DNA of 64,000 bases from Alphaproteobacteria bacterium. GTDB lineage: Bacteria; Pseudomonadota; Alphaproteobacteria; UBA828. The stretch covers positions 1,952,001 through 2,016,000 of the forward strand of contig OZ243972.1 in assembly GCA_965214705.1 (NCBI GenBank). Reading direction: 5' to 3'. Below the pieces are notes generated by a model. The model searched no databases, was not told the origin of the DNA, and worked only from the letters and a program-made list of their open reading frames with translations. A program made the position numbers and the translations under genes. Below are positions 6,210-63,463 of this stretch, piece after piece. The first letter of the stretch is position 1. The number at the start of each line of letters is the position of its first letter.

Positions 6210-6736
6210 CGGCCGGCCTCCGCGCCGGAGGGCGGGGCCGGGGGCGCCGGCTCCCCGGCCCGAGGGTCTTCGGCTCGAGAGTCTCCGGCCCGAGGGTCTC
6301 CGGCCCGAGGGTCTCCGCCTTCGTCGTCTCCCTTGCCGTTCGAACCGCGGCCTTCCGCCGCCGGAGCCTCCGCCGCATCCGTGCCGCCCGCGGGCCTGGG
6401 TGAGAGCACGTTGACGATCCCCTGCGGGCCGGCGACGACGATCTCGGCGATTTGCCGGTCCCGGCCCTCGCGGTCCCTGAACTCGCGGTGCGCGAGACGG
6501 CCCTCGACGAGCACCGCGGCGCCCTTCCTCACCATCGCCTCGACCGGGTCGACGGCGGGGCCGTAGACGGCAATGCGGTGCCACTCGGTGCGCTCGGCGC
6601 TGCCGCCGTCGGCGCGCTTCCACCTCCCGGTCGTGGCCAGGCTGAACGCGGCGGCGCGGCCGCCGTCCGGCAGGGCGCGGATGTCGGGATCGCGCCCGGC
6701 ATGGCCCGGCAGCGTCACTCGGTTGATGTGCAGCAT
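6206..6736 (-). CDS. ssb: Single-stranded DNA-binding protein
   Basis: INRVTLPGHAGRDP, ERTEWHRIAVYG, RKGAAVLVEGRL; RBS GGAGGA. The tail is built from 15-bp repeats and lacks the usual DDIPF tip. Confidence 0.92.
   Translation of the reverse strand: MLHINRVTLPGHAGRDPDIRALPDGGRAAAFSLATTGRWKRADGGSAERTEWHRIAVYGPAVDPVEAMVRKGAAVLVEGRLAHREFRDREGRDRQIAEIVVAGPQGIVNVLSPRPAGGTDAAEAPAAEGRGSNGKGDDEGGDPRAGDPRAGDSRAEDPRAGEPAPPAPPSGAEAGR
6257..6316. repeat. 4 x 15-bp quasi-palindromic tandem repeat (GGCNCGAGNGTCTCC) in the ssb tail
   Basis: Units: ggcccgagggtcttc / ggctcgagagtctcc / ggcccgagggtctcc / ggcccgagggtctcc. Confidence 0.9.
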
Positions 6737-13753: not shown

Positions 13754-14529
13754 CGCTCTCCGTCGAGGCGTTCGAGCATTTGCCGCGCGGCGCCGCGCCC
13801 GGCGTCGCCCTCGGCGGAGATGATCTCCAGCGCAGCGGCGAGGCCGATGTTTCCGGTGACGAGATCGTGCGGCGGAGCGGGATCGTTCGCGCAGCCCCGG
13901 CTCGTGCAGGGCGGCACGCCTCCCGGAACCGCGACCACCACCGGGACGCGCTCGACGCCGAACAGGCGGAACAGACGCGGGTCGATGGCGACGCCCGCTT
14001 CGAGATCGCCGAGGCGTTCGCCGACCGCCTTCACGATCTCCCGCAATCCTCCGTCTCCGACGCCGCGCAGCACCAGCGGCGCTCCCGCCCGCGCGGCGTC
14101 CCGCGCCCACTGCCGCCAGCTCTCCGGCGGCACGGCGAGGCTCATGAAGACGAGGATTTCCGGCGTGTCCGGGCGGCCGCCGATGCCCTCGGCGATCCGC
14201 GCCGCTTGCCTCTCGGCCGGGAGCGGCGGGGCGGCGGTCCCCATTCCCGCAGTCGTCTCCCGCGCGGCCGCGCCGGCCCGCTCCAGGGCGCGGTCGACGA
14301 TCGAGCGGGTCCACGCGCCGAGACCGCCATTCCCGGTTTCGCGGATGATTTCGGCGGCTAGCTCGCGCGCCTGAGATTCCGGCGAGGGCTCTTCGGCAAG
14401 CACGGCGCCGGCGCAGAGCGCCAGCGCCACCACCGCGGTCAGCCCGCCTCGGGCAAGGGCAGCGGCACGAGTGTCTCCGGCACGGGTGTCTCCGGCGCGC
14501 TGTCGGAGGTTTCCTACAAGATGCAGCAC
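13750..14529 (-). CDS. trbC: F-type pilin assembly protein TrbC (start uncertain)
   Basis: ILVFMSLAVP, LVLRG, IDPRLFRLFGVERVP, GNIGLAAAL motifs; between traU and traN. Confidence 0.85.
   Translation of the reverse strand: MLHLVGNLRQRAGDTRAGDTRAAALARGGLTAVVALALCAGAVLAEEPSPESQARELAAEIIRETGNGGLGAWTRSIVDRALERAGAAARETTAGMGTAAPPLPAERQAARIAEGIGGRPDTPEILVFMSLAVPPESWRQWARDAARAGAPLVLRGVGDGGLREIVKAVGERLGDLEAGVAIDPRLFRLFGVERVPVVVAVPGGVPPCTSRGCANDPAPPHDLVTGNIGLAAALEIISAEGDAGRGAARQMLERLDGER
14464..14493. repeat. 2 x 15-bp repeat units at the trbC 5' end
   Basis: Units: ggcacgagtgtctcc / ggcacgggtgtctcc. Confidence 0.85.
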
Positions 14530-20794: not shown

Positions 20795-21579
20795 TCGGCC
20801 GGCGCGATCACCGCCCGCACGTAACTCCCCTCGCGGTAGATGCCGTCGGCATCCACGAAGGGCGCGATCCAGATGCGCGCCACCACCTCGCCGGTACGGA
20901 ACGCATCCGATGCGGCCGGATCGGGCGCGTTATCGGCGCGGGCATCGCCGGCCGCCTCGCCCTCGGCCGTGGGCGGCGCATCGTCCGGGACCGGCGGCGC
21001 GATCGCGGCCGAACCGGCTCTCAAAGCACCGGACGCGGAATGGCCGGTAGCGGCGGAGGAGTCCCGGACGGCGCCCGCTACCGGCGCGGCGCGACTTACT
21101 CTCGGGCCGGCGGTCGCATCGGTCGCGACATCGTTATTTCGCCGGGAGAGGCCCGTTTCCGAATCCGCGTCACCGGCATCGCCGATGCCCGAGAACAGCG
21201 ACCCGAGCCAGGCGAACGGATCGCAATCCGATTCGCAGGCCGGTTCGTCGGCAGTCCCGGCCGACAGGCCCGCAACGATGCGACCGCTGCCCTGTCCGTG
21301 GCGCGGGATTGCACCTGCGAGCCTCGTCCCATCTCGCGTCTCCGGCACGAGTGTCTCCGGCACGAGTGTCTCCGGCGCGCGCGTCTCCGACGCGCGCGTC
21401 TCCGACGCGAGTGTCTGCGGCACCGCCGGGTCGGCGGCGAAGACGGACGCGCACACCTTTCCCTGCGCCAGCGGGCATTGCCAGTCGTCGCCCACATGGG
21501 TCGCCGAGCAGCCCGCCAGCGCCAGCGCGGCAATCAAGGCCGCCCCCGCTGCAGGCGGCCGGTTCCTGCGTTCAGTCAT
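20779..21579 (-). CDS. traV: Lipoprotein TraV with an expanded low-complexity middle
   Basis: Lipobox LALAGC, WQCPLAQGKVCASV, C-terminal RIWIAPFVDADG. Confidence 0.88.
   Translation of the reverse strand: MTERRNRPPAAGAALIAALALAGCSATHVGDDWQCPLAQGKVCASVFAADPAVPQTLASETRASETRAPETLVPETLVPETRDGTRLAGAIPRHGQGSGRIVAGLSAGTADEPACESDCDPFAWLGSLFSGIGDAGDADSETGLSRRNNDVATDATAGPRVSRAAPVAGAVRDSSAATGHSASGALRAGSAAIAPPVPDDAPPTAEGEAAGDARADNAPDPAASDAFRTGEVVARIWIAPFVDADGIYREGSYVRAVIAPAEWRLR
21344..21418. repeat. 5 x 15-bp repeat units in traV
   Basis: Units: ggcacgagtgtctcc x2, ggcgcgcgcgtctcc, gacgcgcgcgtctcc, gacgcgagtgtctgc. Confidence 0.9.
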
Positions 21580-22828: not shown

Positions 22829-23811
22829 CGTGACTCTCCCGCGTGCGGCGGATCGGCAACCGGACCGTCTCCGGCGCGAGTGTCTCCGGCACGGGCGTCC
22901 TCGTACACCGCCACCGCGAGCCTGCCGCCCGAGGGGCCGGTGCCGGGCGCCGCCAGCCAGAGAGCGGCGAGGCGGCCGATGCCCGCCAGCCCGCCGATGG
23001 TCTCCGGCACGCGTGTCTCCGGCACGAGTGTCTCCGGCACGAGTGTCCCGGCGAGGCCCGCGGCGCCCTCCGCGCCCCCTGAGGCCGAAGGGCCGGCCTC
23101 GAACACGAACGCCGAGAAGCGCGATCCACGCCAGGTCTCGATGACCTTCAATCCTGAGACACCCGTGCCGGGGACACTTGTGCCGACGACCGCGCGCCCG
23201 GCATGGACCGCATAACCGGCAAGCGGCTCGCCCCGCGCCGCCGCGCGGATCAGGCGCACCAGCGCGCCGATGCGATCGTCGCCGGCCGCCGCCGTTCGAT
23301 CGGACGTGGATGCGGTCGCAGGTGCCGGCGAAACGACCGCCGGGTTGCGGATCAGGATCTGCGTCGCGCCCACGGACACGGGCGTCAGAGCGAGCCGGTA
23401 GGTGAAGCCCCGCTCGGTGCCGATGAACAGCACCTCGGGCCCCGCCGCCGCCGCGCCGTCGCCCCCGAGGGGGCGCAGGTAGAGATCGCCGCTCGCCGGG
23501 TCGTGCTCGACGCGCAGGCCGCCGGGCGCCCGGATCACCTTGGCGACGCGGTCGCCCGGCAGCGCGATGCGAACAACCCCGGACATGGAGATGTCCGCCG
23601 CAAGCTCGGCATGATCCGCCGCCTCCAGGACACTTGTGCCGGAGACACTCGTGCCGGAGACACTCGTGCCGGCGGCATACGCGCACGAGGCATCCATGGC
23701 GGCGGCCACGGAGCCGTACGCCATACATATAAGGAGTGCCGCCGCCATCGCCGCGACGCGGCCGAAGCGCGCCATGGAGTGCGGTCCGGCCGTCACCGAT
23801 CCTGTATTCAT
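22825..23811 (-). CDS. traK: TraK (secretin-like, F-type)
   Basis: Signal peptide, GVVRIALPGDRV, SGDLYLRP, LFIGTERGFTYRLAL; between traE and traB. Confidence 0.85.
   Translation of the reverse strand: MNTGSVTAGPHSMARFGRVAAMAAALLICMAYGSVAAAMDASCAYAAGTSVSGTSVSGTSVLEAADHAELAADISMSGVVRIALPGDRVAKVIRAPGGLRVEHDPASGDLYLRPLGGDGAAAAGPEVLFIGTERGFTYRLALTPVSVGATQILIRNPAVVSPAPATASTSDRTAAAGDDRIGALVRLIRAAARGEPLAGYAVHAGRAVVGTSVPGTGVSGLKVIETWRGSRFSAFVFEAGPSASGGAEGAAGLAGTLVPETLVPETRVPETIGGLAGIGRLAALWLAAPGTGPSGGRLAVAVYEDARAGDTRAGDGPVADPPHAGESR
22873..23670. repeat. Four arrays of the 15-bp repeat in traK, in both orientations
   Basis: Forward: 22873-22902 (2 units), 23006-23050 (3 units). Inverted: 23155-23184 (2 units), 23626-23670 (3 units, ggagacactcgtgcc). 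Confidence 0.9.
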
Positions 23812-33472: not shown

Positions 33473-34274
33473 TTACGCGCGGCCGCGGAACAGCGGCGCG
33501 AAGCGGGCGCGGAGCGCCGCTGAGCCGAGTGCGACCAGATCGTCGTTGAAATCGTTGCCGGCGGGCACGATCACTGTCGCGCCGATGCCGAGCCGCGCGC
33601 AGCGCCGGGCGAGGCGTTCGGCCGCGAGTGCGCCGTCCTCGTCGTTGTCGCGGGCGATCACGAGGTGCGCGAGGTCGAAGGGAGGCGCGAACGCGCCCAG
33701 GCTCCCGGCGGAGAGCGCGGCGGCGGCCGTGATCTCGGGCACGGCGGTGACCAGCGAGAGCACCGTCTCGATGCCCTCGCCGGCGACGAGCGGAGCGAGG
33801 CCGGAAGGGGCGCCGAAGCGCACCGCGAGGCCGTGGATGCGGCCGAGCGCCTTGCGCGGCGCGGCGACGCCCGCCTTGGCGGGTGCGCGCGGATCGAGCC
33901 AGGTGCGCTGCACGCCGGTAATCGCGCCGTCGCCGCCGGTGACGGCGGCGACCAGCGCCGGGAAGCGGCGCACCGACGAGCCTTCGCGATAGCGAAGCTC
34001 GGGATGGAAGCGCAAGGCCGCGAAGCGGCAGCGCGACAGCCCCCGGGCGTGGAGATAACGCTCCGCGTGGCTGCCGTCGATGGCGCGGCAGCGCCGCCAC
34101 AGGCGGCGCGCCGCTTGCGCTCCGTCGTAAGGCGCGTCCGGCGCTGCCGCCGGCGAAGCCGGCAAGGCGAGGAACGAGCGCGCCTCGTCCTGCGCCGCGC
34201 GCAGCGTCGGCGCGTTGATGCGGTAGCGGATGAGGTCGAGCAGGTCGCCGTGCTCGCCCGTGGCCGCATCGGTC
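33473..34274 (-). pseudogene. Toprim-domain primase-like protein, 5'-truncated
   Basis: TDAATGEHGDLLDLI, AERYLHARGL, GVQRTWL, GEGIETVLS, ARDND, DFNDDL. The N-terminus is replaced by foreign sequence at about 34275. Confidence 0.85.
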
Positions 34275-34605
34275 TTATGTGCAGTTGAACATAATGAATT
34301 GGCCTGTATCGGTCGTGCGCAGCAGGACCGATACAGGCATTGAGCTGAGCCGCGCTGCACGGCCGTAGTGCCGGGCTATGGGGAAAGTAACCGCTGGGTG
34401 GGAGCCGATTAGGCCGAAGCGGTGCAACCTGTTGGTGTCGCTGGCGGCGCCGGCACTCTGAATCTCCACTTATCAGGTTGCGACGCGGCTGTGCAGGGGC
34501 TCGCGACGATGTTTCGCCGCCGGGCAGCACGAAGCGGGCGCAGGAGCGGTCGCGGCGCGGCGGCCGGGGGGACTGTTGTCGGACCTTGTCGGTTCTGACG
34601 CATCG

Positions 34606-35826
34606 TCACGGCGGTCGGGTATTCGTCGCCCGCATGGCTGCTTGGGGCTGCGGCTCAAGAATGACGGTTTGCCGCAGCGTTGCCTCGCCGCACTGGCGGC
34701 ACACGGTGATGTCGATCCCCGTCAGTCGCAGCATCATCTGCTGCGTCGTTTCCGGCTCCCGCGGTTCAGGGGCAGGCTGGCCGAGCAGGTCTCGGCAGCG
34801 GGCGAGCTTGCGAGCCCGGCAGCGATTGGCGAGCAAGCCGTAGTGGCGCAGGCGGGTGAAGCCGCGCGGGAGGACGTGCAGGAGGAAGCGGCGGATGAAC
34901 TCGTCGACGTCGAGACGCATCACCTTGACCTTGTTGCCGTCAGCGTAGTCGCGCCAACGGAAGCGAACGTGCTCGCCGTCGAAGTCGACGAGGCGATGAT
35001 TGGCGATGGCAGCCTTGTGGGTGTAGCGCCCGAGATAGGCCAGAACGTGCCCGGCGCCGGCGAACGGGGCCTTGGTGTAGACCACCCAGTCGTTCGACCG
35101 CAGCGCGGTCTTCAGACACTCGAACTCGCGGCTGTCGTCACCACCGCCGACGACCTTGAGCCGGAGTTCGCCGTCGCGGTGCGCGGCGCCGAGGAAGTCG
35201 AGATACTTGCCGCGGAAGACCTTCGAGAGCGCGACCGTGGGGAACAGGAAGCCCTTGCGCGCGGGAGTGAGCCAGCGCTCTCTGTCCGGGCTCAGACCGC
35301 CGTCGGTGACGATACAGTGGACATGGATGTGCTGTCCCAGATTCTGCCCCCAAGTGTGCAGCACCATGGTGATGCCGAGCTCGCCGCCGAGCCAGCGGGG
35401 ATTGCGGCCGAACTCGAGCAGGGTCTGGGAGGCGGCCTTGAAGAGCAGCCTGTAGATGAGCGCGGCATTGCCCTGGGCCACGGGGTTGAGCTCGTGGGGC
35501 AGGGTGAACACGACATGCCAGTAGTCGATGTCGAGCAGATCGGCGCACTGACGCTCAACCCACCTGGTCTGCGAGAGGGTCTGGCACTTGGGGCAATGAC
35601 GGTTCCGGCACGAGGCGTACTGGATCGTCACCGCCCCGCAGTGATCGCATTCTGCCTTGAACCCGCCGAGCACAGCGGTGCGGCAGTTCACCAGCGCGTC
35701 GACGACCCTCTGCTGCTGGGCCGAGAGCAGATGTGTCTCGCCATAGGCGTCGCCGCGCTCGCGCAGGATGTCCGCGACCTCCAGCGCCGGCCGTGTGGCT
35801 GGCGCCGCGTGGCCGACATGAGCCAC
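34606..35826 (-). CDS. IS91-family transposase
   Basis: CRTAVLGG, SCRNRHCPKCQ, HVVFTLP, LHTWGQ, HUH HIHVH, YLGRY, C-terminal CRQC. Confidence 0.95.
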   Translation of the reverse strand: MAHVGHAAPATRPALEVADILRERGDAYGETHLLSAQQQRVVDALVNCRTAVLGGFKAECDHCGAVTIQYASCRNRHCPKCQTLSQTRWVERQCADLLDIDYWHVVFTLPHELNPVAQGNAALIYRLLFKAASQTLLEFGRNPRWLGGELGITMVLHTWGQNLGQHIHVHCIVTDGGLSPDRERWLTPARKGFLFPTVALSKVFRGKYLDFLGAAHRDGELRLKVVGGGDDSREFECLKTALRSNDWVVYTKAPFAGAGHVLAYLGRYTHKAAIANHRLVDFDGEHVRFRWRDYADGNKVKVMRLDVDEFIRRFLLHVLPRGFTRLRHYGLLANRCRARKLARCRDLLGQPAPEPREPETTQQMMLRLTGIDITVCRQCGEATLRQTVILEPQPQAAMRATNTRPP

Positions 35827-35829
35827 CGG

Positions 35830-36684
35830 TCAGGCCTGGGCAGGACGCGGAAACTCCAGCAGGTCCAGGGGCGACGGCGTGGCGGACGTCTTGTCGTGAG
35901 CAAGGTGAAGGTAGCGCATGGTCGAGCGGATTGAGGTGTGCCCGAGGCGGCGTTGGATGACATGCAGCTCGACGCCGGCCTCGAGGAGCCCGGTGGCGTA
36001 GCAATGGCGCAGCGTGTGGATCCCGCCGGGCTTGGCGATCCCGGCTTTGTCCTTGGCTCGATCGTAAACGTGTGCTGGCCCATGGCGCGTCATCGGCCGG
36101 CCGGGAATCCGACCGGGGAACAGCCAGTGCTCGGGCCGTACCCGCTGCCAGTACTCGCGCAGCTCGTCGAGCAGCCGGGGCGAGAGCGGGACGTAGCGGT
36201 CCTTGTTGCCCTTGCCCTGATCGACGCGCAGGCACATCCGCTGTGAGTCGATATCGCTGATCTGCAACCGGCCGAGCTCGCTCGCCCGAAGCCCCGCTGC
36301 ATAGGCCGTCATCAGCAAGGCGCGGTGCTTGCGGTTGATGGTGACGCTGAACAGCCGCACCAGTTCGTCTTGGTTGAGCAGTACGGGCAGGGTGGAAGGC
36401 GTCTTGGCGAAGGGCAGATAGAAGTGCGGCTCGGGCAAGCCCAGCGTGATGCGATAGAGGAAGCGGATCCCTTGGCGAGCGCTGTTGCAGCTCTGCCAAG
36501 CCAGCCCCCGCTCTTCGTGAAGAAAGATGAGGTACTCCTGGACTTCCTCCGCTGAGATGTGCTCGGGGCTGCGACCGTAGTGAACCGCGAGCCCGGAGAC
36601 CGAGTTGAGGTAGGACTTCCTGGTGTTCTCGGCGAAGCCGCGAACCGTCATGTCGTTGATCATGCGCTGGCGAAGTGCCGTCAT
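35830..36684 (-). CDS. Tyrosine recombinase associated with the IS91 transposase
   Basis: MTALRQRM, GLRASE, GKGNKDR, HTLRH, LGH, TMRY. Confidence 0.95.
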   Translation of the reverse strand: MTALRQRMINDMTVRGFAENTRKSYLNSVSGLAVHYGRSPEHISAEEVQEYLIFLHEERGLAWQSCNSARQGIRFLYRITLGLPEPHFYLPFAKTPSTLPVLLNQDELVRLFSVTINRKHRALLMTAYAAGLRASELGRLQISDIDSQRMCLRVDQGKGNKDRYVPLSPRLLDELREYWQRVRPEHWLFPGRIPGRPMTRHGPAHVYDRAKDKAGIAKPGGIHTLRHCYATGLLEAGVELHVIQRRLGHTSIRSTMRYLHLAHDKTSATPSPLDLLEFPRPAQA

Positions 36685-36908
36685 GGGGCGTCTCCCTCTG
36701 GGTTTGGTCTGTCACGAAGACACGCCCATGCTCTTGCTCGCCGGCTTGGCGGTCGACGACCATCGATCAACGAGGGAGAAACAGGATTCGACCCTGCGCC
36801 CAGACGCTGGAGCGAACGGCCACACTCAACTTACGCGCGGCAAGGAGATCACTCTGGGCACCCGGCGGCCGAGGCGCCCCGCCGCGGAACGCGGCTCAGT
36901 TCAAGGTT

Positions 36909-36950
36909 AAGGGTTGGGCAGGCTCTCTCTCGAGAGCCTGCCCAACCCTT
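36909..36950. repeat. Perfect 19-bp-stem hairpin, loop TCTC
   Basis: AAGGGTTGGGCAGGCTCTC-tctc-GAGAGCCTGCCCAACCCTT. Confidence 0.95.
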
Positions 36951-37212
36951 TTGAACGAAGCCGCGGGCCACGAGAGGCGAAGTTGAGCTATGTGGAAAGT
37001 GCGCTGATGTCAGCGTCAGGCGGCATCCACCGGCAGCAGAGTTGCGCATAAAATCGACGCTCGCGCCGGTCTTTCGGCAGGCATGCGGGCGCACGCTGCG
37101 AGGACTGAGCGGGGTGTGAGCCGAGGGCTGTCAGCCCGGCTCAAGCGGAGACAGGTTCGGTCGTGCGTCGGCGCTTTGGCGCCGTTGCGCGGGGCCGAAG
37201 CGAGCGGGCGTC

Positions 37213-38454
37213 TCACGGTTTCCCCCTGTGGGTCGGCGGCAGCGCCGGCGGGCCGCGCGTCGAGCGGGGCTCATGGCGGCGGCGGATTTCGCGGACGAGG
37301 CGCATGACGCCGCCGCAGTGGGGGCAGGCCACGGGCGCGGTGCCGATCTCGGGCTCTTCGTCGGGCTCGGCCTGAGCGCCGTCCACGCTTCCCTCGGGGG
37401 CGGCGCAGCCGAGGGCGCCGAGAGCCTGGCGTGCTCTCTCCAGCGTGCTGGCGCGGCAGCCGTTGGCGAGGATGCCGAAGTAGCGAATGCGGTGCATGCC
37501 GTCCGGCAGGACGTGCCTCAGGAAGCGGCGGATGAACTCGTCGGCGCTCACGGTGGCGATGCCGTAGCGCGGCTTTCTCTGCCCCGGCGCCTTGGGCTTT
37601 CGGTGGCGGAAGGAGACCGTCTCGCCGTCGAAGGAGACGATGCGGCTGTCGGAGATGGCGATCCTGTGCGTGTAGTGCGAGAGGTACCGGAAGACCTGCT
37701 CAGGCCCGCGGAAGGGCCGCTTGGCGTAGACCACCCAGTCCCTGGCCCGGGCGGCGGCAAGCGTGGCGTGGAACTCGCCGGGATTGGCGAGGTGGGCGAG
37801 GGTGCCGTGGAACTCCAGGTCCCCCCGGCCGTGGGCGCGGGCGAGCTCCTCGAGGAAGAGGCGGCGGAACAGGCTGCCGAGGACCTTGACGGGGGCGAGG
37901 AAGGTGGTGCTCCCCGTCTTCCACTCGCCACTGTCTACGTCGAAGCCCGCGTTGGGCACGACCACGTGCAGGTGCGGGTGGAAGCGGAGCTTCTGATCCC
38001 AGGTATGGAGGACCGCGGTGCCGCCGATGCGCATGCCGCCGTGGCGGGGATCGGCGGCGATGGTGCGCAGGGTCTCGGCGACGGCCCGGAAGAGGATGTC
38101 GAACACCACCCTGCGGTTGCAGAAGGCAATGGCGGCAACCTCCTTGGGCAGGGTGAAGACCACATGGAAGTAGGGCACCGGCAGGATGTCCCCGGCGCGC
38201 TCCTCGCTCCAGAGGTTGGCGGCGAGACCCTGGCAGGTGGGGCAGTGGCGGTTGCGGCAGGAGTTGAAGAGCGGATGCTCGCGCCCGCAGCCCTCGCAGG
38301 CGTACATGTGGCCGCCGAGCACGGCGGTGCGGCACGCCTCGATGGCGCCCATGACCTTGAGCCGGGCGGCGTCGATGCGCCCTTTGTGGCGCTCACGGAA
38401 AGCGGCGCCGGCGCGGCGGAAGATCTCCGCCACGCCCGCGCGTTCGGCCTCCAC
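37213..38454 (-). CDS. IS91-family transposase
   Basis: CRTAVLGG, SCRNRHCPTCQ, HVVFTLP, HPHLH, YLSHY, CPHC. Confidence 0.95.
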   Translation of the reverse strand: MEAERAGVAEIFRRAGAAFRERHKGRIDAARLKVMGAIEACRTAVLGGHMYACEGCGREHPLFNSCRNRHCPTCQGLAANLWSEERAGDILPVPYFHVVFTLPKEVAAIAFCNRRVVFDILFRAVAETLRTIAADPRHGGMRIGGTAVLHTWDQKLRFHPHLHVVVPNAGFDVDSGEWKTGSTTFLAPVKVLGSLFRRLFLEELARAHGRGDLEFHGTLAHLANPGEFHATLAAARARDWVVYAKRPFRGPEQVFRYLSHYTHRIAISDSRIVSFDGETVSFRHRKPKAPGQRKPRYGIATVSADEFIRRFLRHVLPDGMHRIRYFGILANGCRASTLERARQALGALGCAAPEGSVDGAQAEPDEEPEIGTAPVACPHCGGVMRLVREIRRRHEPRSTRGPPALPPTHRGKP

Positions 38455-38460
38455 GCGCCG

Positions 38461-39339
38461 TCAGTTGCGCAACGCTGCGAAGCCTGAGATCGGGTGGTCG
38501 AGGCCCTCGAACATCTTGCCGGTGACGCGGGCGTAGTGACGGGTCGTGTTCGCGCTTCGATGGCCGAGCATGTCCCGGATCACCTCGATATCGCCGCCGC
38601 GCTCGAGGAGATGGGTCGCCGCCGAATGGCGCAGGCAATGGAAGGTGTAGCTGCGGTCGAGCTCGGCAATGTCGCGCGCCCTCCTGAAGGCGGCCTGCAA
38701 GGTCTCCGTTGCGATGGGCCTGTCGAGCGAGACGCCGTAGAAGAGCCAGCTCGTCGGACGCGGCCAGATGTTCCTGTAGTAGACGCGCAAGTAGTGGATG
38801 ACGATGTCCGGCAACGGTGCCATTCTCTCGGTGCCGCCTTTGCCGGAGGGGATGTGCAGCAGCTTCTTCTCCGACAGGATGTCGCCGACCTTGATGGCCA
38901 AGGTCTCGGAGATGCGGAGCCCGCCGCCATAGCCGGTGACAATGGCAGCACGGTGGCGGAGGTCGGGTGTCGCAAGGATGAGGTGCTCGACCTCCTGCTC
39001 CGACATGTAGCGCGGCAGCTTGCCGGGCTTCTTGCGGGAGCGCAGGCCGGCGACATGGTCAGGCCAGCCGAGTGTGTCGATGTAGAGGAAGTTCAGCGCG
39101 GCGAAGGAGACGTTGGTCGTGCCCGGACTGAGCCCCTTGTCGATCCGCCCCAGGTACCACTGGCGCACCTGCTCGGCGTCGAGCTCGTCCGGCGAGGCGT
39201 CGTAGTACCTGGCCAGGTTCTTGATCTCGCAGATGTAGGCCTTGGACGTGCTCGCGGCCAGATTGGCGATGCGGAGCTGCTCCTCCATGCGCTGGCGAAG
39301 AGGGGTGACGGTGTTCGTGTCGCACGCGGTCCCGGTCAT
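38461..39339 (-). CDS. Tyrosine recombinase associated with the IS91 transposase (start MTGTAC)
   Basis: TPLRQRM, GLRISE, GKGGTER, HCLRH, LGH, TRHY. Confidence 0.93.
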   Translation of the reverse strand: MTGTACDTNTVTPLRQRMEEQLRIANLAASTSKAYICEIKNLARYYDASPDELDAEQVRQWYLGRIDKGLSPGTTNVSFAALNFLYIDTLGWPDHVAGLRSRKKPGKLPRYMSEQEVEHLILATPDLRHRAAIVTGYGGGLRISETLAIKVGDILSEKKLLHIPSGKGGTERMAPLPDIVIHYLRVYYRNIWPRPTSWLFYGVSLDRPIATETLQAAFRRARDIAELDRSYTFHCLRHSAATHLLERGGDIEVIRDMLGHRSANTTRHYARVTGKMFEGLDHPISGFAALRN

Positions 39340-39570
39340 TATCGATCTCCCTGGATCGCGACGGCGCGCCGCCGGACCGATCCGGCGACGGTCCGTCGCA
39401 GGGGTCGATGCTAACCACTGGTGATCGGGAGGCTGCTGGGGATCCGCCACCCGACGGGCGGAGCGCCACTGACGCAACCGGGAAGCGAACGCACAGAACA
39501 AACGGCACCCGCGACGCCTCGGAAATGAATGAACTCTACGCCGCTAACTCCGCGTAGCGGCTTCGTTCAA

Positions 39571-59664: not shown

Positions 59665-60110
59665 CAAGGTTAAGGGTTGCGCAGGTTCTCGAGAGAGAGC
59701 CTGCGCAACCCTTTTGAACGGAGGCGCGGGCCACGAGAGGCGAAGTTGAGCTAAGTGGAAAGAGCGCTGATGTCAGCGTCAGGCGGCATCCACCGGCAGC
59801 AGGGTTGCGCATGAGATCGCGCTCGCGCCCGTCTTTCGGCAGGCATGCGGGCGCACGCTGCGAGGACTGAGCGGAGTGTGAGCCGAGGGCTGTCACCCCG
59901 GCTCAAGCGGAGACAGGTTCGGTCGTGCGTCGGCGCTTTGGCGCCGTTGCGCGGGGCCGAAGTGAGCGGCCGTCTCACGGTTTCCCCCTGTGGTTCGGCG
60001 GCAGCGCCGGCGGGCCGCACGTCGAGCGGGGCTCATGGCGGCGGTGGATTTCGCGGACGAGGCGCATGACGCCGCCGCAGTGGGGGCAGGCCACGGGCGC
60101 GGCGTCGATC
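59665..60110 (-). mobile_element. Remnant downstream (oriIS-like) end of an element-2 relative, incl. last codons of the transposase
   Basis: Highly similar direct repeat of 36902-37349, again starting at CAAG. Hairpin 59672-59713 has loop GAGA. Confidence 0.9.
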
Positions 60111-60128
60111 TAGTCACCTGAATCTAAA

Positions 60129-60892
60129 CCCAAGTTGGCACTTTTCCGCTGTCTGTGTTCCCTATTGGTTTGATTCAACGCGATATATTTCTCGGCTGAA
60201 TCCAACATGGCCCCACATTTTGTGAGATTCTGTCAGCTTGGCAGGCGGGTCCTCGTGCGGTGGATGGCGGGGTCCACGCCCGCCGCCGAGGAGATTGCGG
60301 CAACCTCGGCGGCCGGGCGCGTGTCCTGGCGGTTGACGATCAAGGTGCCGTCGGTCTGGCGCAGGCGCGTGGTGATCCGCACCCAGGTCCGCATGCTCTC
60401 GCGGATCGATGCCCAGCACTTGTGGATGCCGCGCGCGGCCAGCCGGGTGCGGATCAGATGCACGGCGTGGTAGGCCAGGACGGCGATCAGCAGGTGGGCC
60501 GCGATGCGCCGGTCGAGCTGGTGCCAGATCGTGCGAAGGCCGAGCTCGGATTTCAAGCTTCGGAATGTCGCCTCGATATCCGTGATCCGCCAGTACGTCC
60601 GCAGGACCGTCTCGATGTCCCAGCCGACGTGGCTGGTGCGCAGCACATAGGCGCCCGCGCCCTCGTCGGCCTCGTCGTATTGCGGCCTGCGCTTGAAGCG
60701 CACGGCAGTGGCGTTGGGGCCGGTTTTCGCCTTCTCGACCGTGATCTCGTAGTGCCTGGCGACGGCGGAGAAGCGCTGCTTGAGGCGGCCTATGCTCTCC
60801 AGGACCTTGTCGTAGCGCTTGAGGCGGCCCTTGACCGGGAGGCCGCCGAGGAGCCTTTCCAGCGCCGCCTCGAAGCGGTTCCGCCGCAGGCC
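60129..60892 (-). mobile_element. Partial inverted IS1634 copy (one TIR + 3' third of transposase, 60233-60892)
   Basis: CCCAAGTTGGCACTTTT at 60129; protein from GLRRNRFEAALERL onward is nearly identical to the intact copy. Confidence 0.92.
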
Positions 60893-61059
60893 CAGGTTCC
60901 CTTTGTACAAACTGCCGTATCCGGTCAGCCGCTTGTGACACGCTCTCCCGGTCCTGCGTCCGGCGCGTGCTTTGGCTTTCCAGATTCCCCTTGGGCTCGG
61001 CCCTTGGCTCCACCGGCTCCGCCGGGGCAGGTGCCCCATTGTTCGCCGGCTTCATCGCT

Positions 61060-63067
61060 GTCGGGTCGGAGGAGGCGCCCCGCGAGGCTAGCCTCCGTCC
61101 GCCGCTCAAACGGCCCGTACGGTTTTCCCGTAAGCCGCTTTCACAAAGGTGTCTCAACGAAGGTTCAAGGACGGAACCAGTGAAATCAGGCGAACAAGCC
61201 CGTATTCGTCGATCAGCTTGCGCTCCGGCAACTGTTTCCAGCCAGCGTTGCGCCAGCGCTTGCGACGATGCGACCAGAGCCGCCGCACGATCCAGCCGTC
61301 AAGCTGGTGGAAGAGCCCGCGGACGTGGGCCTTGCAATAGTATTGGCCCCATCCCCGAATGATCGGGTTGATCTCGTCAATCAGCCCCTGCGTGCTGACA
61401 GGAGCCTTGCGCCGGGTACGCTGGCGAATCTGGTTCTTGAAGTGCCGGATGGATTTCTCACGCGGAACCGCGTAGCGCGCTCCCCCGCGAACCCCGCTCT
61501 TGATCTTGGAGGACGACAGCCGGAGAGGCCGCTCGCCCTGCTTGATCTTGTAGCCGAGGAACTCAAACCCGTGCCTGACATGGACAATGCGGGTCTTCCC
61601 GGCGTTGAGGGACACACCCAGCTTTGCCAGAATCCGCCTGGCCGTCTCCAGTGCTGCGCGGGCTTCCCCGCGTGTGCGGCACGTGATCAGCCAATCATCG
61701 GCGTATCGCGTTAGTCGATAGCCGCGACGACGCATTTCCCAATCGAACGGGGTCAGCAAGATATTGCTGAGCAGCGGTGAAACGATGCCGCCCTGCGGAG
61801 TGCCCTGTTCGGTCGGCAGCCTCTTACCGTCGGCCACCACCCCGGCCGTGAGCATCTGCCTGAGCAGACCTAATACCCGGCCATCCGAGACTCGCTGGTT
61901 GACGAGTTCGAGGAGCTTTTCGTGGTCCACGGACCCGAAGAAGTCTTTCAAATCCGCATCGAGAACCCACTCGTTGCCCTCGTCCAGTTCCCTCCATATC
62001 TTGCGTAACGCTCCATGGGCAGACCTTCCTTGCCGGTACCCGTAGTTGGCATCGTCGAACACCGGCTCGAAGATCGGTTCCAGCCGGTTCAGCAGCGCCT
62101 GCTGGCACACCCGGTCGTAGATTGTCGGGATGCCGAGCGGGCGGAACTTCCCCGGCTGGCCCGCCTTGGGGATCAGGCATTGGAGAACCGGCTGCGGGTG
62201 ATACTCACCGTCCCGCAACTCCCGGTGCAGGCGATCGAGATTTGCATCCAGCGATGCCTCGAACGCCGCCAAATCCTCTCCGTCCACGCCACCGGCACCC
62301 CGGTTGCGCTTCACCTTTTCCCAGGCCACCTCAAGGTTCTTCCGCTTGTACACCTTGTCCACCAGTGAGTGGACCTTCCTGTCACCCGCCGGGTTGATCC
62401 AGTCGATGAGTCTCCTCGGGCCATGATGTCCGAACTTGTCCGCGTCATGGTCCTTACTCACTCATCGCTGTCTCTCGCCGACCACCTCTGCCAACCGACT
62501 TCCCCGGCCCACACGGCCGCCGCTCGCGCGGTCACCCGGCTTTCGCCGGGCTTCAGGTACTATTCGGTTGTCCGATTGCTCGCCGCGCATCCTTTCCCAT
62601 TTCGCCTTTCGGCTTATAGGGTCCGTTATCCCGGTGCCACCCGAGAACGCGGCGAGCCCTCCTGGGGTCACGTCCAGATCTTCCGTACCGTGCCGCTCGC
62701 AAACACCTTGGTGCGACGGGTGGGTAAGAACGCCTTCGCCGCCATAGTGCCGGCTCGACCTTGCCCCGTCTTTGGCCGACCGATTCATCATGGGGTGGCC
62801 CCCTCGATTACGGCCCGGTACTTCTCCGCAAGCCCTTCAGATTCCACCTCGCGGTGGACACCCTGCCTTCCGGTTGTCTTTCGACAGTGGACCAACTTAG
62901 CTCCTCCCTTGGCTGTCTCCGCCGTTTCCGGCTTCGTGCCCGTTTAGAGTTTCGCTTATCGGCTCACTCCGGCCAGTGAGGAATTACCCCCACTTTTGGA
63001 TATGGCGCCCCTTACCCGAGCGCCAGTGGGACTTGAACCCACCTGATCTGGGCGCTGCCCAGCACAC
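61060..63067 (-). mobile_element. Inner, apparently intact group II intron (about 2.0 kb)
   Basis: 5' GTGTG, domain V AAAGCGGCTTACGGGAAAACCGTACGGGCCGTTT, domain VI ending CCGACCCGAC. Confidence 0.88.
61154..62461 (-). CDS. ltrA: Group II intron reverse transcriptase/maturase, no endonuclease domain
   Basis: GAGGVDG, RPLGIPTIYDR, GTPQGGIVSPLLSNI, RYADD, FEFLGY, INPIIRGWGQYY. Confidence 0.95.
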   Translation of the reverse strand: MSKDHDADKFGHHGPRRLIDWINPAGDRKVHSLVDKVYKRKNLEVAWEKVKRNRGAGGVDGEDLAAFEASLDANLDRLHRELRDGEYHPQPVLQCLIPKAGQPGKFRPLGIPTIYDRVCQQALLNRLEPIFEPVFDDANYGYRQGRSAHGALRKIWRELDEGNEWVLDADLKDFFGSVDHEKLLELVNQRVSDGRVLGLLRQMLTAGVVADGKRLPTEQGTPQGGIVSPLLSNILLTPFDWEMRRRGYRLTRYADDWLITCRTRGEARAALETARRILAKLGVSLNAGKTRIVHVRHGFEFLGYKIKQGERPLRLSSSKIKSGVRGGARYAVPREKSIRHFKNQIRQRTRRKAPVSTQGLIDEINPIIRGWGQYYCKAHVRGLFHQLDGWIVRRLWSHRRKRWRNAGWKQLPERKLIDEYGLVRLISLVPSLNLR

Positions 63068-63463
63068 ACTATGGCCGAGTCTGATTTCTCCATGTCGTTC
63101 ATCTTCGGTTACGGACTCCTCCTTTCCTCAGCGTTCCCGCCACGACTCAGCGGGATGACATGGAGACCTCCCAGGTCCCGGTGCAGTGCGTACGTACGTG
63201 CGTGGGTTCTCTGACACCGCGGGATTCAGACCCCCCTCGCCATATCGGTGGGCCAGATGCGACCTTCGGCCAACGAAAGAGCCTCGGCATCCCGGATGAT
63301 GTTTCTTTCGGTGCTCAATAGCCCCGCCCACACGCGCCCCTGTCAACGCTTGACCCTCGCCCTCGCGAGCGACGGCCCATGACTCGGGGTGGAAGTGGTG
63401 GCTCACCTTCTCCTTCCTGTTGGACTTTCACCAACTGCACTCGCACCAGTTCGCCTGGCGCAC

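Follow-up and report, generated by a model that had tools for sequence, protein, structure and literature searches.

The subterminal origin hairpin of an IS91-family insertion sequence, present in about 95 copies in a single genome, carries a 4-nt loop that lies in either orientation. The polymorphism is real and affects a conserved type of origin hairpin that is already on record, and a known mutational process explains it best: the two states probably represent rare, heritable loop inversions that arose by quasi-palindrome template switching within the IS91-family oriIS palindrome. Judged by these roughly 95 natural copies, the loop of an IS91-type origin can lie either way without stopping the spread of the element, so it is the stem, not the loop, that the element keeps. 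The genome is also a clear natural record of template switching at a palindrome, with examples of loop inversion, of a stem change at its half-step and at completion, and of a palindrome made perfect. The window referred to throughout is the whole 64,000-nt stretch of DNA that was analyzed, and coordinates without a contig label refer to it; the genome comprises 7.92 Mb in 3 contigs.

Structure and Coding Content of Element 2

The hairpin lies near one end of a two-gene element, element 2, whose features in the window are listed below.

36905–39570, plus strand (the presumed transferred strand): whole element 2, 2,666 bp; most copies align over reference positions 1–2666
36902–36904, plus strand: target trinucleotide CAA beside the origin end, also the last 3 nt of the element 1 terIS; CAA, AAA or GAA in most left flanks
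36905–36908, plus strand: GGTT, element 2 bases 1–4, between the putative oriIS nick (CAA/GGTT) and the hairpin
36909–36950, plus strand: oriIS subterminal hairpin, copy A, perfect 19-bp stem, loop TCTC; exact-stem sites n = 92 in the genome, covariation in relatives
36951–36964, plus strand: inner inverted repeat TTGAACGAAGCCGC, 14 nt, reverse complement of the terIS end GCGGCTTCGTTCAA; the box is also found in metagenomes
37213–38454, minus strand: IS91-family HUH (Y2) transposase, 413 aa; Pfam Y2_Tnp 2.7e-54, Zn_Tnp_IS91 4.2e-30
38461–39501, minus strand: tyrosine recombinase, Xer/integron-like, 346 aa; Pfam Phage_integrase 6.7e-33, Phage_int_SAM_4 7e-12
39540–39570, plus strand: terIS end, a 7-bp palindrome GCCGCTA/TAGCGGC followed by TTCGTTCAA; element end at 39570

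Element 2 starts at 36905 (GGTTAAGGG...) and ends at 39570 (...CGTTCAA). GGTT was constant in all element-2 ends and the sequence to its left was variable, while the ter ends were identical up to GTTC in 94 of 95 and mostly continued with AA. The flanks of 89 paired copies had mostly CAA, AAA or GAA before GGTT, corresponding to a VAA preference; no target-site duplication was visible in these 89 flank pairs, and a search of the genome for empty sites of element 2 found none. The hairpin is on the oriIS side, downstream of tnpA, with GGTT on one side and the 14-nt TTGAACGAAGCCGC box on the other. The transposase translation contained HLH (the HUH motif) and YLSHY (Y-x3-Y). The best solved relatives of the recombinase were XerC-like, XerD and IntI4 (7.6e-22 for IntI4), and in an alignment with the XerC-like structure 4a8e, GLRISE, GKGG, HxLRH, LGH and the tyrosine were in place.

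In the account given in PMC13181058, IS91-family elements have an oriIS that differs from the terIS and insert without duplication at a short, specific target; the oriIS contains two subterminal palindromes in IS91 and IS801 and one in IS1294 and IS1294b, and the terIS contains one palindrome beside the cleavage site, which is GTTC in three of these four elements. Because it has HUH/Y2 and zinc domains, distinct ends with palindromes, a GTTC-type terIS and no duplication, element 2 is, as judged from its sequence, an IS91-family insertion sequence. The hairpin is its oriIS subterminal palindrome, 4 nt inside the origin end. An earlier, sequence-only reading had held that a hairpin-ended or folded single-stranded intermediate departs from the standard IS91 model; this loses its force, since subterminal oriIS palindromes are on record for IS91, IS801, IS1294 and IS1294b in that same account (PMC13181058). 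One head-to-tail tandem junction was found genome-wide; this, with common left flanks whose right flanks differ, gives indirect signs that element 2 would move by rolling-circle transposition. The possibility that the hairpin is a pre-existing REP-like target was considered and rejected: solo sites numbered 1 and occupied sites 91, and the hairpin is homologous in relatives.

A common left flank (...GGAAGTTCG) preceded element 2 at 5 + 3 loci, 8 copies in all (e.g., C3:1555900, C2:60053 and C1:3004315), with different right flanks. This suggests that element 2 and the end of another repeat may move together as a composite.

The Origin Hairpin in Copies A and B

In copy A, arms at 36909–36927 and 36932–36950 enclose the loop TCTC at 36928–36931, and 19 of 19 pairs are Watson-Crick, so that the perfect stem and TCTC loop first described from sequence alone were confirmed. 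The single-stranded DNA fold had an energy of −30.7 kcal/mol, compared with −11.2 ± 2.5 for 200 shuffled sequences (z = −7.8; 0/200 as good). The related copy B is the following feature.

59665–60111, plus strand: copy B, a diverged, truncated element-2 origin end, about 91–97% identity; hairpin 59672–59713, loop GAGA

Copy B has arms at 59672–59690 and 59695–59713 and the loop GAGA at 59691–59694, the exact 4-nt reverse complement of the loop of copy A. It shares the flanks of copy A without any change of orientation (left, CAA-GGTT; right, TTGAAC). The arms differ by a two-sided change, G36917/C36942 in copy A and C59680/G59705 in copy B, which replaces G:C with C:G. The flanks, orientation, loop and matched arm change had been reported correctly by the sequence-only reading, but it overlooked that the copy B stem is imperfect: T59686 lies opposite G59699 as a T·G wobble, from a C>T change on the left arm alone. 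The copy B fold was −25.7 kcal/mol (single-stranded DNA; z = −6.4).

Because the stem is perfect, only the loop reports orientation, and inversion of the whole hairpin is not distinguished from inversion of the loop alone; the T·G asymmetry of copy B was present in that copy only. The G:C to C:G swap is not expected from a flip, since a perfect palindrome is unchanged by inversion, and is a compensatory or templated change.

That the hairpin acts chiefly as an intrinsic terminator, shielding the element from transcription that enters from outside, was considered very unlikely. In favor of such a function, the G+C-rich stem is followed by TTTT on the plus strand, but the hairpin was not called by a terminator scan, and the T-run is missing in element 1 and weak in the subfamilies.

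Loop States across the Genome

Origin ends were located with a 60-nt anchor just inside the hairpin, which gave 102 matches, 100 of them with an intact hairpin side. Among these 100 ends, the loop was TCTC in 84 and GAGA in 9 (including copy B and C1:465158), and two diverged subfamilies accounted for 4 and 3. The exact-stem pattern occurred at 92 sites in the genome, one of which was a solo palindrome without an element body. This palindrome, at C1:3505985–3506030, reads GGTT-arm-GAGA-arm-AACC, has a 23-bp stem and adjoins an element-1 ter end, and no element-2 body accompanies it; it might be a footprint or might have been left by a deletion or an aborted event. A count of loop orientations across copies, which the sequence-only reading had proposed, thus gave both states (84 TCTC and 9 GAGA, plus the solo GAGA) rather than one orientation only.

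Near-identical copies, defined by ≤10 differences from the window copy (n = 85), comprised 78 with TCTC and 7 with GAGA. Over positions 1–50 of these copies, the sole change besides the loop was one AACC insertion, and private variants numbered 18 in 85 × 2,666 nt. Five common SNPs were found in 16 of the 32 possible combinations, so the copies have recombined. GAGA occurred on 4 of the 16 SNP haplotypes, every one of which was also held by TCTC copies; only SNP 2506 showed an association with the loop, and a weak one (uncorrected Fisher p = 0.036). Within the burst, GAGA could have had one origin followed by recombination or up to four origins, and flipping could be more frequent than "rare." The mixing of SNPs among near-identical element-2 copies is also a sign that recombination or conversion between copies of the IS is frequent.

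A diverged clade marked by 54G/57G contained 5 TCTC and 2 GAGA copies; a sixth diverged TCTC copy did not carry the marks. Since both states were present in this clade and in the main burst, at least two inversions have taken place; gene conversion that transferred just the loop would need a tract of ≤18 nt. The origin ends were co-oriented with the inferred leading strand in 62 of 100 cases, as read from GC-skew curves that were irregular.

Assembly or polishing errors at a palindrome in a repeat of about 95 copies are an extremely improbable source of the two states. Repeats and palindromes are hard to polish, and the contigs of four public runs over 36600–37300 contained the majority form only; rare variants are, however, dropped from such contigs by construction. 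The exact 4-nt reverse complement was found at 10 sites, and it was linked to private stem changes (copy B and C1:465158) and to the AACC insertion.

Probable Template Switching at the Origin Palindrome

The AACC insertion was found in C2:646579, which has a GAGA loop followed, after the arm, by 4 inserted nucleotides that are the reverse complement of GGTT. In this copy and in the solo palindrome, GAGA + arm + AACC is the exact reverse complement of GGTT + arm + TCTC, and in C2:646579 the sequence forms, with the upstream tandem copy, a perfect 78-nt palindrome with a 37-bp stem. A GAGA loop together with an AACC that perfects a 78-nt palindrome is a signature of template switching. Stem changes were found at two stages, as the half-step T·G wobble in copy B and as a completed T:A pair in C1:465158. 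According to PMC8794818, a single template-switch event can invert a loop, extend a stem or introduce multiple compensatory changes, and the correction of imperfect inverted repeats to perfect ones is argued for proteobacteria in PMC5941160 and likewise stated in PMC8604942.

By analogy with IS91 and IS608, the HUH transposase would nick the plus strand at CAA/GGTT, 4 nt upstream of the hairpin, and the plus strand would be displaced toward the terIS end (...GTTCAA). The hairpin may help to mark the origin, as in other HUH systems, whether it folds in the displaced strand or is extruded from duplex DNA. A DNA polymerase that switches template across the perfect 19-bp palindrome, in ordinary replication or in the transposition step, would then give a rare, heritable loop inversion, and the same process would also change both sides of the stem and add insertions that make the palindrome perfect. 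The nick site, the strand and the function of the hairpin are in this scheme putative. Since copies with either loop state appear to transpose, the sequence of the loop is probably not recognized.

The inversions and the perfected and solo palindromes could instead be by-products of rolling-circle transposition itself, a tentative alternative that we consider possible but unlikely. A leading-strand polymerase primed at the oriIS nick would jump at the palindrome onto the displaced, transposase-held strand, copy the loop, at times continue to the 5′ end (GGTT to AACC) and then jump back. Such coupling would account for the inserted AACC, which equals bases 1–4 of the element in reverse complement, but in the tandem copy the flanks are palindromic anyway (GTTCAA/TTGAAC), so that copying from the template need not have ended at the 5′ end. 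The solo palindrome without a body beside an element 1 terIS (C1:3505985–3506030) is also consistent with it, but may derive by deletion from a variant of the C2:646579 type, which would make the two one event. No single point change was nearly as common as the inversion (7 flipped copies versus 18 private variants in 85 × 2,666 nt); even if all GAGA copies were independent, however, inversion would accompany at most about 8% of transpositions.

Rolling-Hairpin and Recombinase Alternatives

The sequence-only reading had taken the two loop states for flip and flop forms of a parvovirus-like rolling-hairpin or hairpin-ended intermediate, with hairpin transfer in each round. An HUH nuclease is present, a terminal-proximal palindrome occurs in two orientations, and the inner edge of the palindrome carries, on the opposite strand, the terIS-like GCGGCTTCGTTCAA, an arrangement reminiscent of a terminal resolution site. 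The states were, however, split 84:9 and not near 1:1 (9/93 or 7/85; binomial p ≈ 2e-16), and one state was common to 78 of the 85 near-identical copies, which fits stable inheritance through transposition. In the genome assembly, 0 sites had element body on both sides of the hairpin, so head-to-head junctions, as expected of dimers with a replicated hairpin end, were absent; the element is integrated, has IS91-type ori and ter ends and gave the head-to-tail tandem that a rolling circle predicts. The hairpin of element 1, described below, was flipped in 0 of 11 copies. The flip/flop claim was thus left unsupported, and a rolling-hairpin intermediate is highly improbable.

An equally improbable proposal is that the tyrosine recombinase uses the palindrome, or a folded ter-ori junction of a single-stranded DNA circle, as its site and flips or processes the palindrome. 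IntI acts on folded attC. The predicted ter-ori junctions of both elements would fold into a long stem, a bulge starting at the nick (GGTT or TGAATTGG) and the hairpin, which fits the proposal. On the other side, we know of no tyrosine recombinase that inverts a 4-nt spacer within one site, and a core-site motif was not found. In bioRxiv 10.1101/542381, IS91-linked recombinases fall in an integron-like subgroup, but according to PMC13181058 oriIS palindromes are also present in the recombinase-less IS91, IS801 and IS1294.

A broader reading makes the hairpin a built-in strand-switch point of rolling-circle transposition, at which jumps of the polymerase would invert the loop and, on run-off, add AACC to give perfected or solo palindromes; the substrate of the recombinase would then be the ter-ori junction, folded within a single-stranded circle. 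This reading is doubtful and we hold it to be quite unlikely. If it were true, loop state would be a natural counter of strand-switch events and the role of the recombinase could be tested on a folded substrate. The predicted folded ter-ori junction is in any case a concrete substrate on which a role of the recombinase in IS91 elements that carry one could be tested. For the loop polymorphism, quasi-palindrome template switching is the preferred explanation.

Element 1, a Sister Element

A second element of the same two-gene kind directly adjoins element 2: the terIS end of element 1 abuts the first base of element 2.

34295–36904, plus strand: element 1, sister IS91 + recombinase element; ends fixed by paralogous empty sites
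34606–35826, minus strand: element 1 transposase
35830–36684, minus strand: element 1 recombinase
34302–34338: element 1 hairpin, 13-bp stem (34302–34314 with 34326–34338), 11-nt loop; z = −3.9

Comparison with two paralogous empty sites showed that the element 1 insertion was simple and without duplication. The unrelated 13-bp hairpin just outside the TTGAGC box of element 1, which the sequence-only reading had pointed out, held up under folding (z = −3.9). Its loop was the same in 11 of 11 copies, with 0 flips, and one diverged copy had a compensated stem change.

Of the 11 element-1 insertion sites, that at 34270–34300 in the window and 10 others in the genome, 8 had the element inside a short palindrome, in its 3′ arm (e.g., TTATG...CATAA, ATTACGTTGAG/CTCAACGTAAT), and paralogous empty sites exist. 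Element 1 thus seems to prefer hairpin-forming targets and can enter either strand of them. A second "flip" beside element 1, in which the 12-mer GTGCAGTTGAAC is replaced by its reverse complement, was examined and rejected; it is accounted for by insertion into either strand of a palindromic target. A primase-like gene with DUF7146 and Toprim domains (33473–34360, minus strand) ends beside the element 1 insertion site, and paralogous copies of the DUF7146/Toprim region are found elsewhere in the genome.

Conservation of the Hairpin among Relatives

The exact-stem hairpin pattern was found in none of 40 relatives searched. When 400 genomes of the class were searched with a 496-nt query, one homologous origin end turned up, a single decayed copy in G184, and a plasmid collection contained no copy of the element, giving just matches of 66–68% identity to the transposase gene.

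In 11 distinct hairpins of relatives, 92% of cells were paired and 7 of 19 pairs had changed on both sides. This level of two-sided change was reached by 0 of 500 shuffles, and controls slid along the sequence were 28–50% paired. The expectation that structure would be conserved where sequence is not was thereby borne out. The covariation count is nonetheless weaker evidence of selection than it appears, as template switching can mimic covariation.

The loops of the relatives, read on the plus strand, were mostly the purine-rich GAGA, GCGA, GTGA and GGGA; that of G184 was GTTA. Since the loops of close relatives are mostly purine-rich on this strand, TCTC, the most successful form, is probably the derived state. 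A low-depth contig of public run X1 aligning at 36932–37024 carried a diverged relative of the hairpin with the loop GGGA (plus strand).

Metagenomes were scanned for the 16-nt box, and 81 matches with 70 nt upstream were obtained; in 27 of the 81 a transposase homologue was encoded downstream, on the opposite strand, accompanied in 17 of these 27 by a recombinase. For the 27 matches, the 70 nt located 5′ of the TTGAACGAAGCCGCGG box had a median fold of −17.4 kcal/mol, compared with −9.5 kcal/mol for shuffled sequence, and a stem of ≥10 bp was present upstream of the box in 14 of the 27. Two findings argue for a real role, which would most simply be that of an oriIS signal: element 1 has an unrelated hairpin in the equivalent position, and the hairpin is widespread among relatives.

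Neighboring and Nested Elements

An IS110-family element of 1,650 bp (DEDD_Tnp_IS110 + Transposase_20) was found inside the element-2 transposase gene in at least 13 copies, at an identical position, exemplified by C3:1766890–1768538 and 12 further element-2 copies; the equivalent position in the window is approximately 38265. Three of the IS110-bearing copies contained a further nested insertion (4,410 bp in all). Insertion at one position fits sequence-guided targeting of one IS by another.

The homology of copy B to element 2 ends at 60111, beyond which a group II intron lies within 60112–63430 (minus strand), with the following features.

61154–62461, minus strand: group II intron reverse transcriptase/maturase
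63205–63428, minus strand: group II intron D1–D4, Rfam match

A 331-aa open reading frame at 60162–61157 had no Pfam match. Elsewhere in the window, 15-nt tandem units (GTCTCCGGCACGAGT-like) were found at 6251–6328, 14443–14505, 21323–21430 and 22852–23062; these are presumably coding repeats.

Comparison with Known Systems

Element 2 resembles the IS91 family, as that family is characterized in PMC13181058, in its Y2 HUH transposase with a zinc domain and its oriIS downstream of tnpA with a subterminal palindrome, in a small terIS palindrome by a GTTC-type sequence, as in IS801 and IS1294, and in a short target abutting oriIS, the lack of target duplication and the presence of tandem and composite products. 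Compared with IS91, IS801 and IS1294/IS1294b, it has one perfect 19-bp stem with a tetraloop where theirs are imperfect palindromes, and a target ending in VAA where theirs are GTTC or CTTG. It further differs from these elements in having an extra, upstream tyrosine recombinase gene and a 14-nt inner repeat that copies the ter end.

In the IS200/IS605 family (IS608), the Y1 TnpA binds imperfect, strand-specific subterminal hairpins on single-stranded DNA. Element 2 would resemble IS608 in having, on the strand that moves, a hairpin within a few bases of the point of cleavage, given the site and strand proposed above; it differs in that its stem is perfect, its loop may lie either way round and its enzyme is Y2 rather than Y1.

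The palindromes of parvovirus and AAV flip-flop repeats are the physical ends of linear single-stranded DNA genomes, and flip and flop are nearly equal at resolvable ends. Element 2 has in common with these viruses an HUH nuclease and a near-end palindrome in two orientations, but it is integrated, its states are split 84:9 and inherited, and dimer junctions were absent from the assembly.

With integron attC/IntI, element 2 shares a recombinase of the integron-like subgroup that has IntI4 among its best solved relatives; the subgroup placement is that of bioRxiv 10.1101/542381. That preprint has the link of the IS91 transposase to integron-like recombinases on record via ISfinder and describes the IS91-linked recombinases as without the IntI-specific insertion. 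No attC-like R/L boxes were seen. The Helitron, as presented in PMC4778049, is likewise a rolling-circle transposon with a subterminal hairpin as an end signal, but its 3′ hairpin marks the terminating end, whereas the long hairpin of element 2 is at the initiating end.

Quasi-palindrome template-switch mutation, as in the Ripley model, matches element 2 in loop inversion, two-sided changes, a half-step and a perfecting insertion. It differs from such mutation in general in that the palindrome lies inside a transposon origin that is single-stranded part of the time, so that the process may be boosted by transposition, and in that the inversion has here been fixed in several transposed copies.
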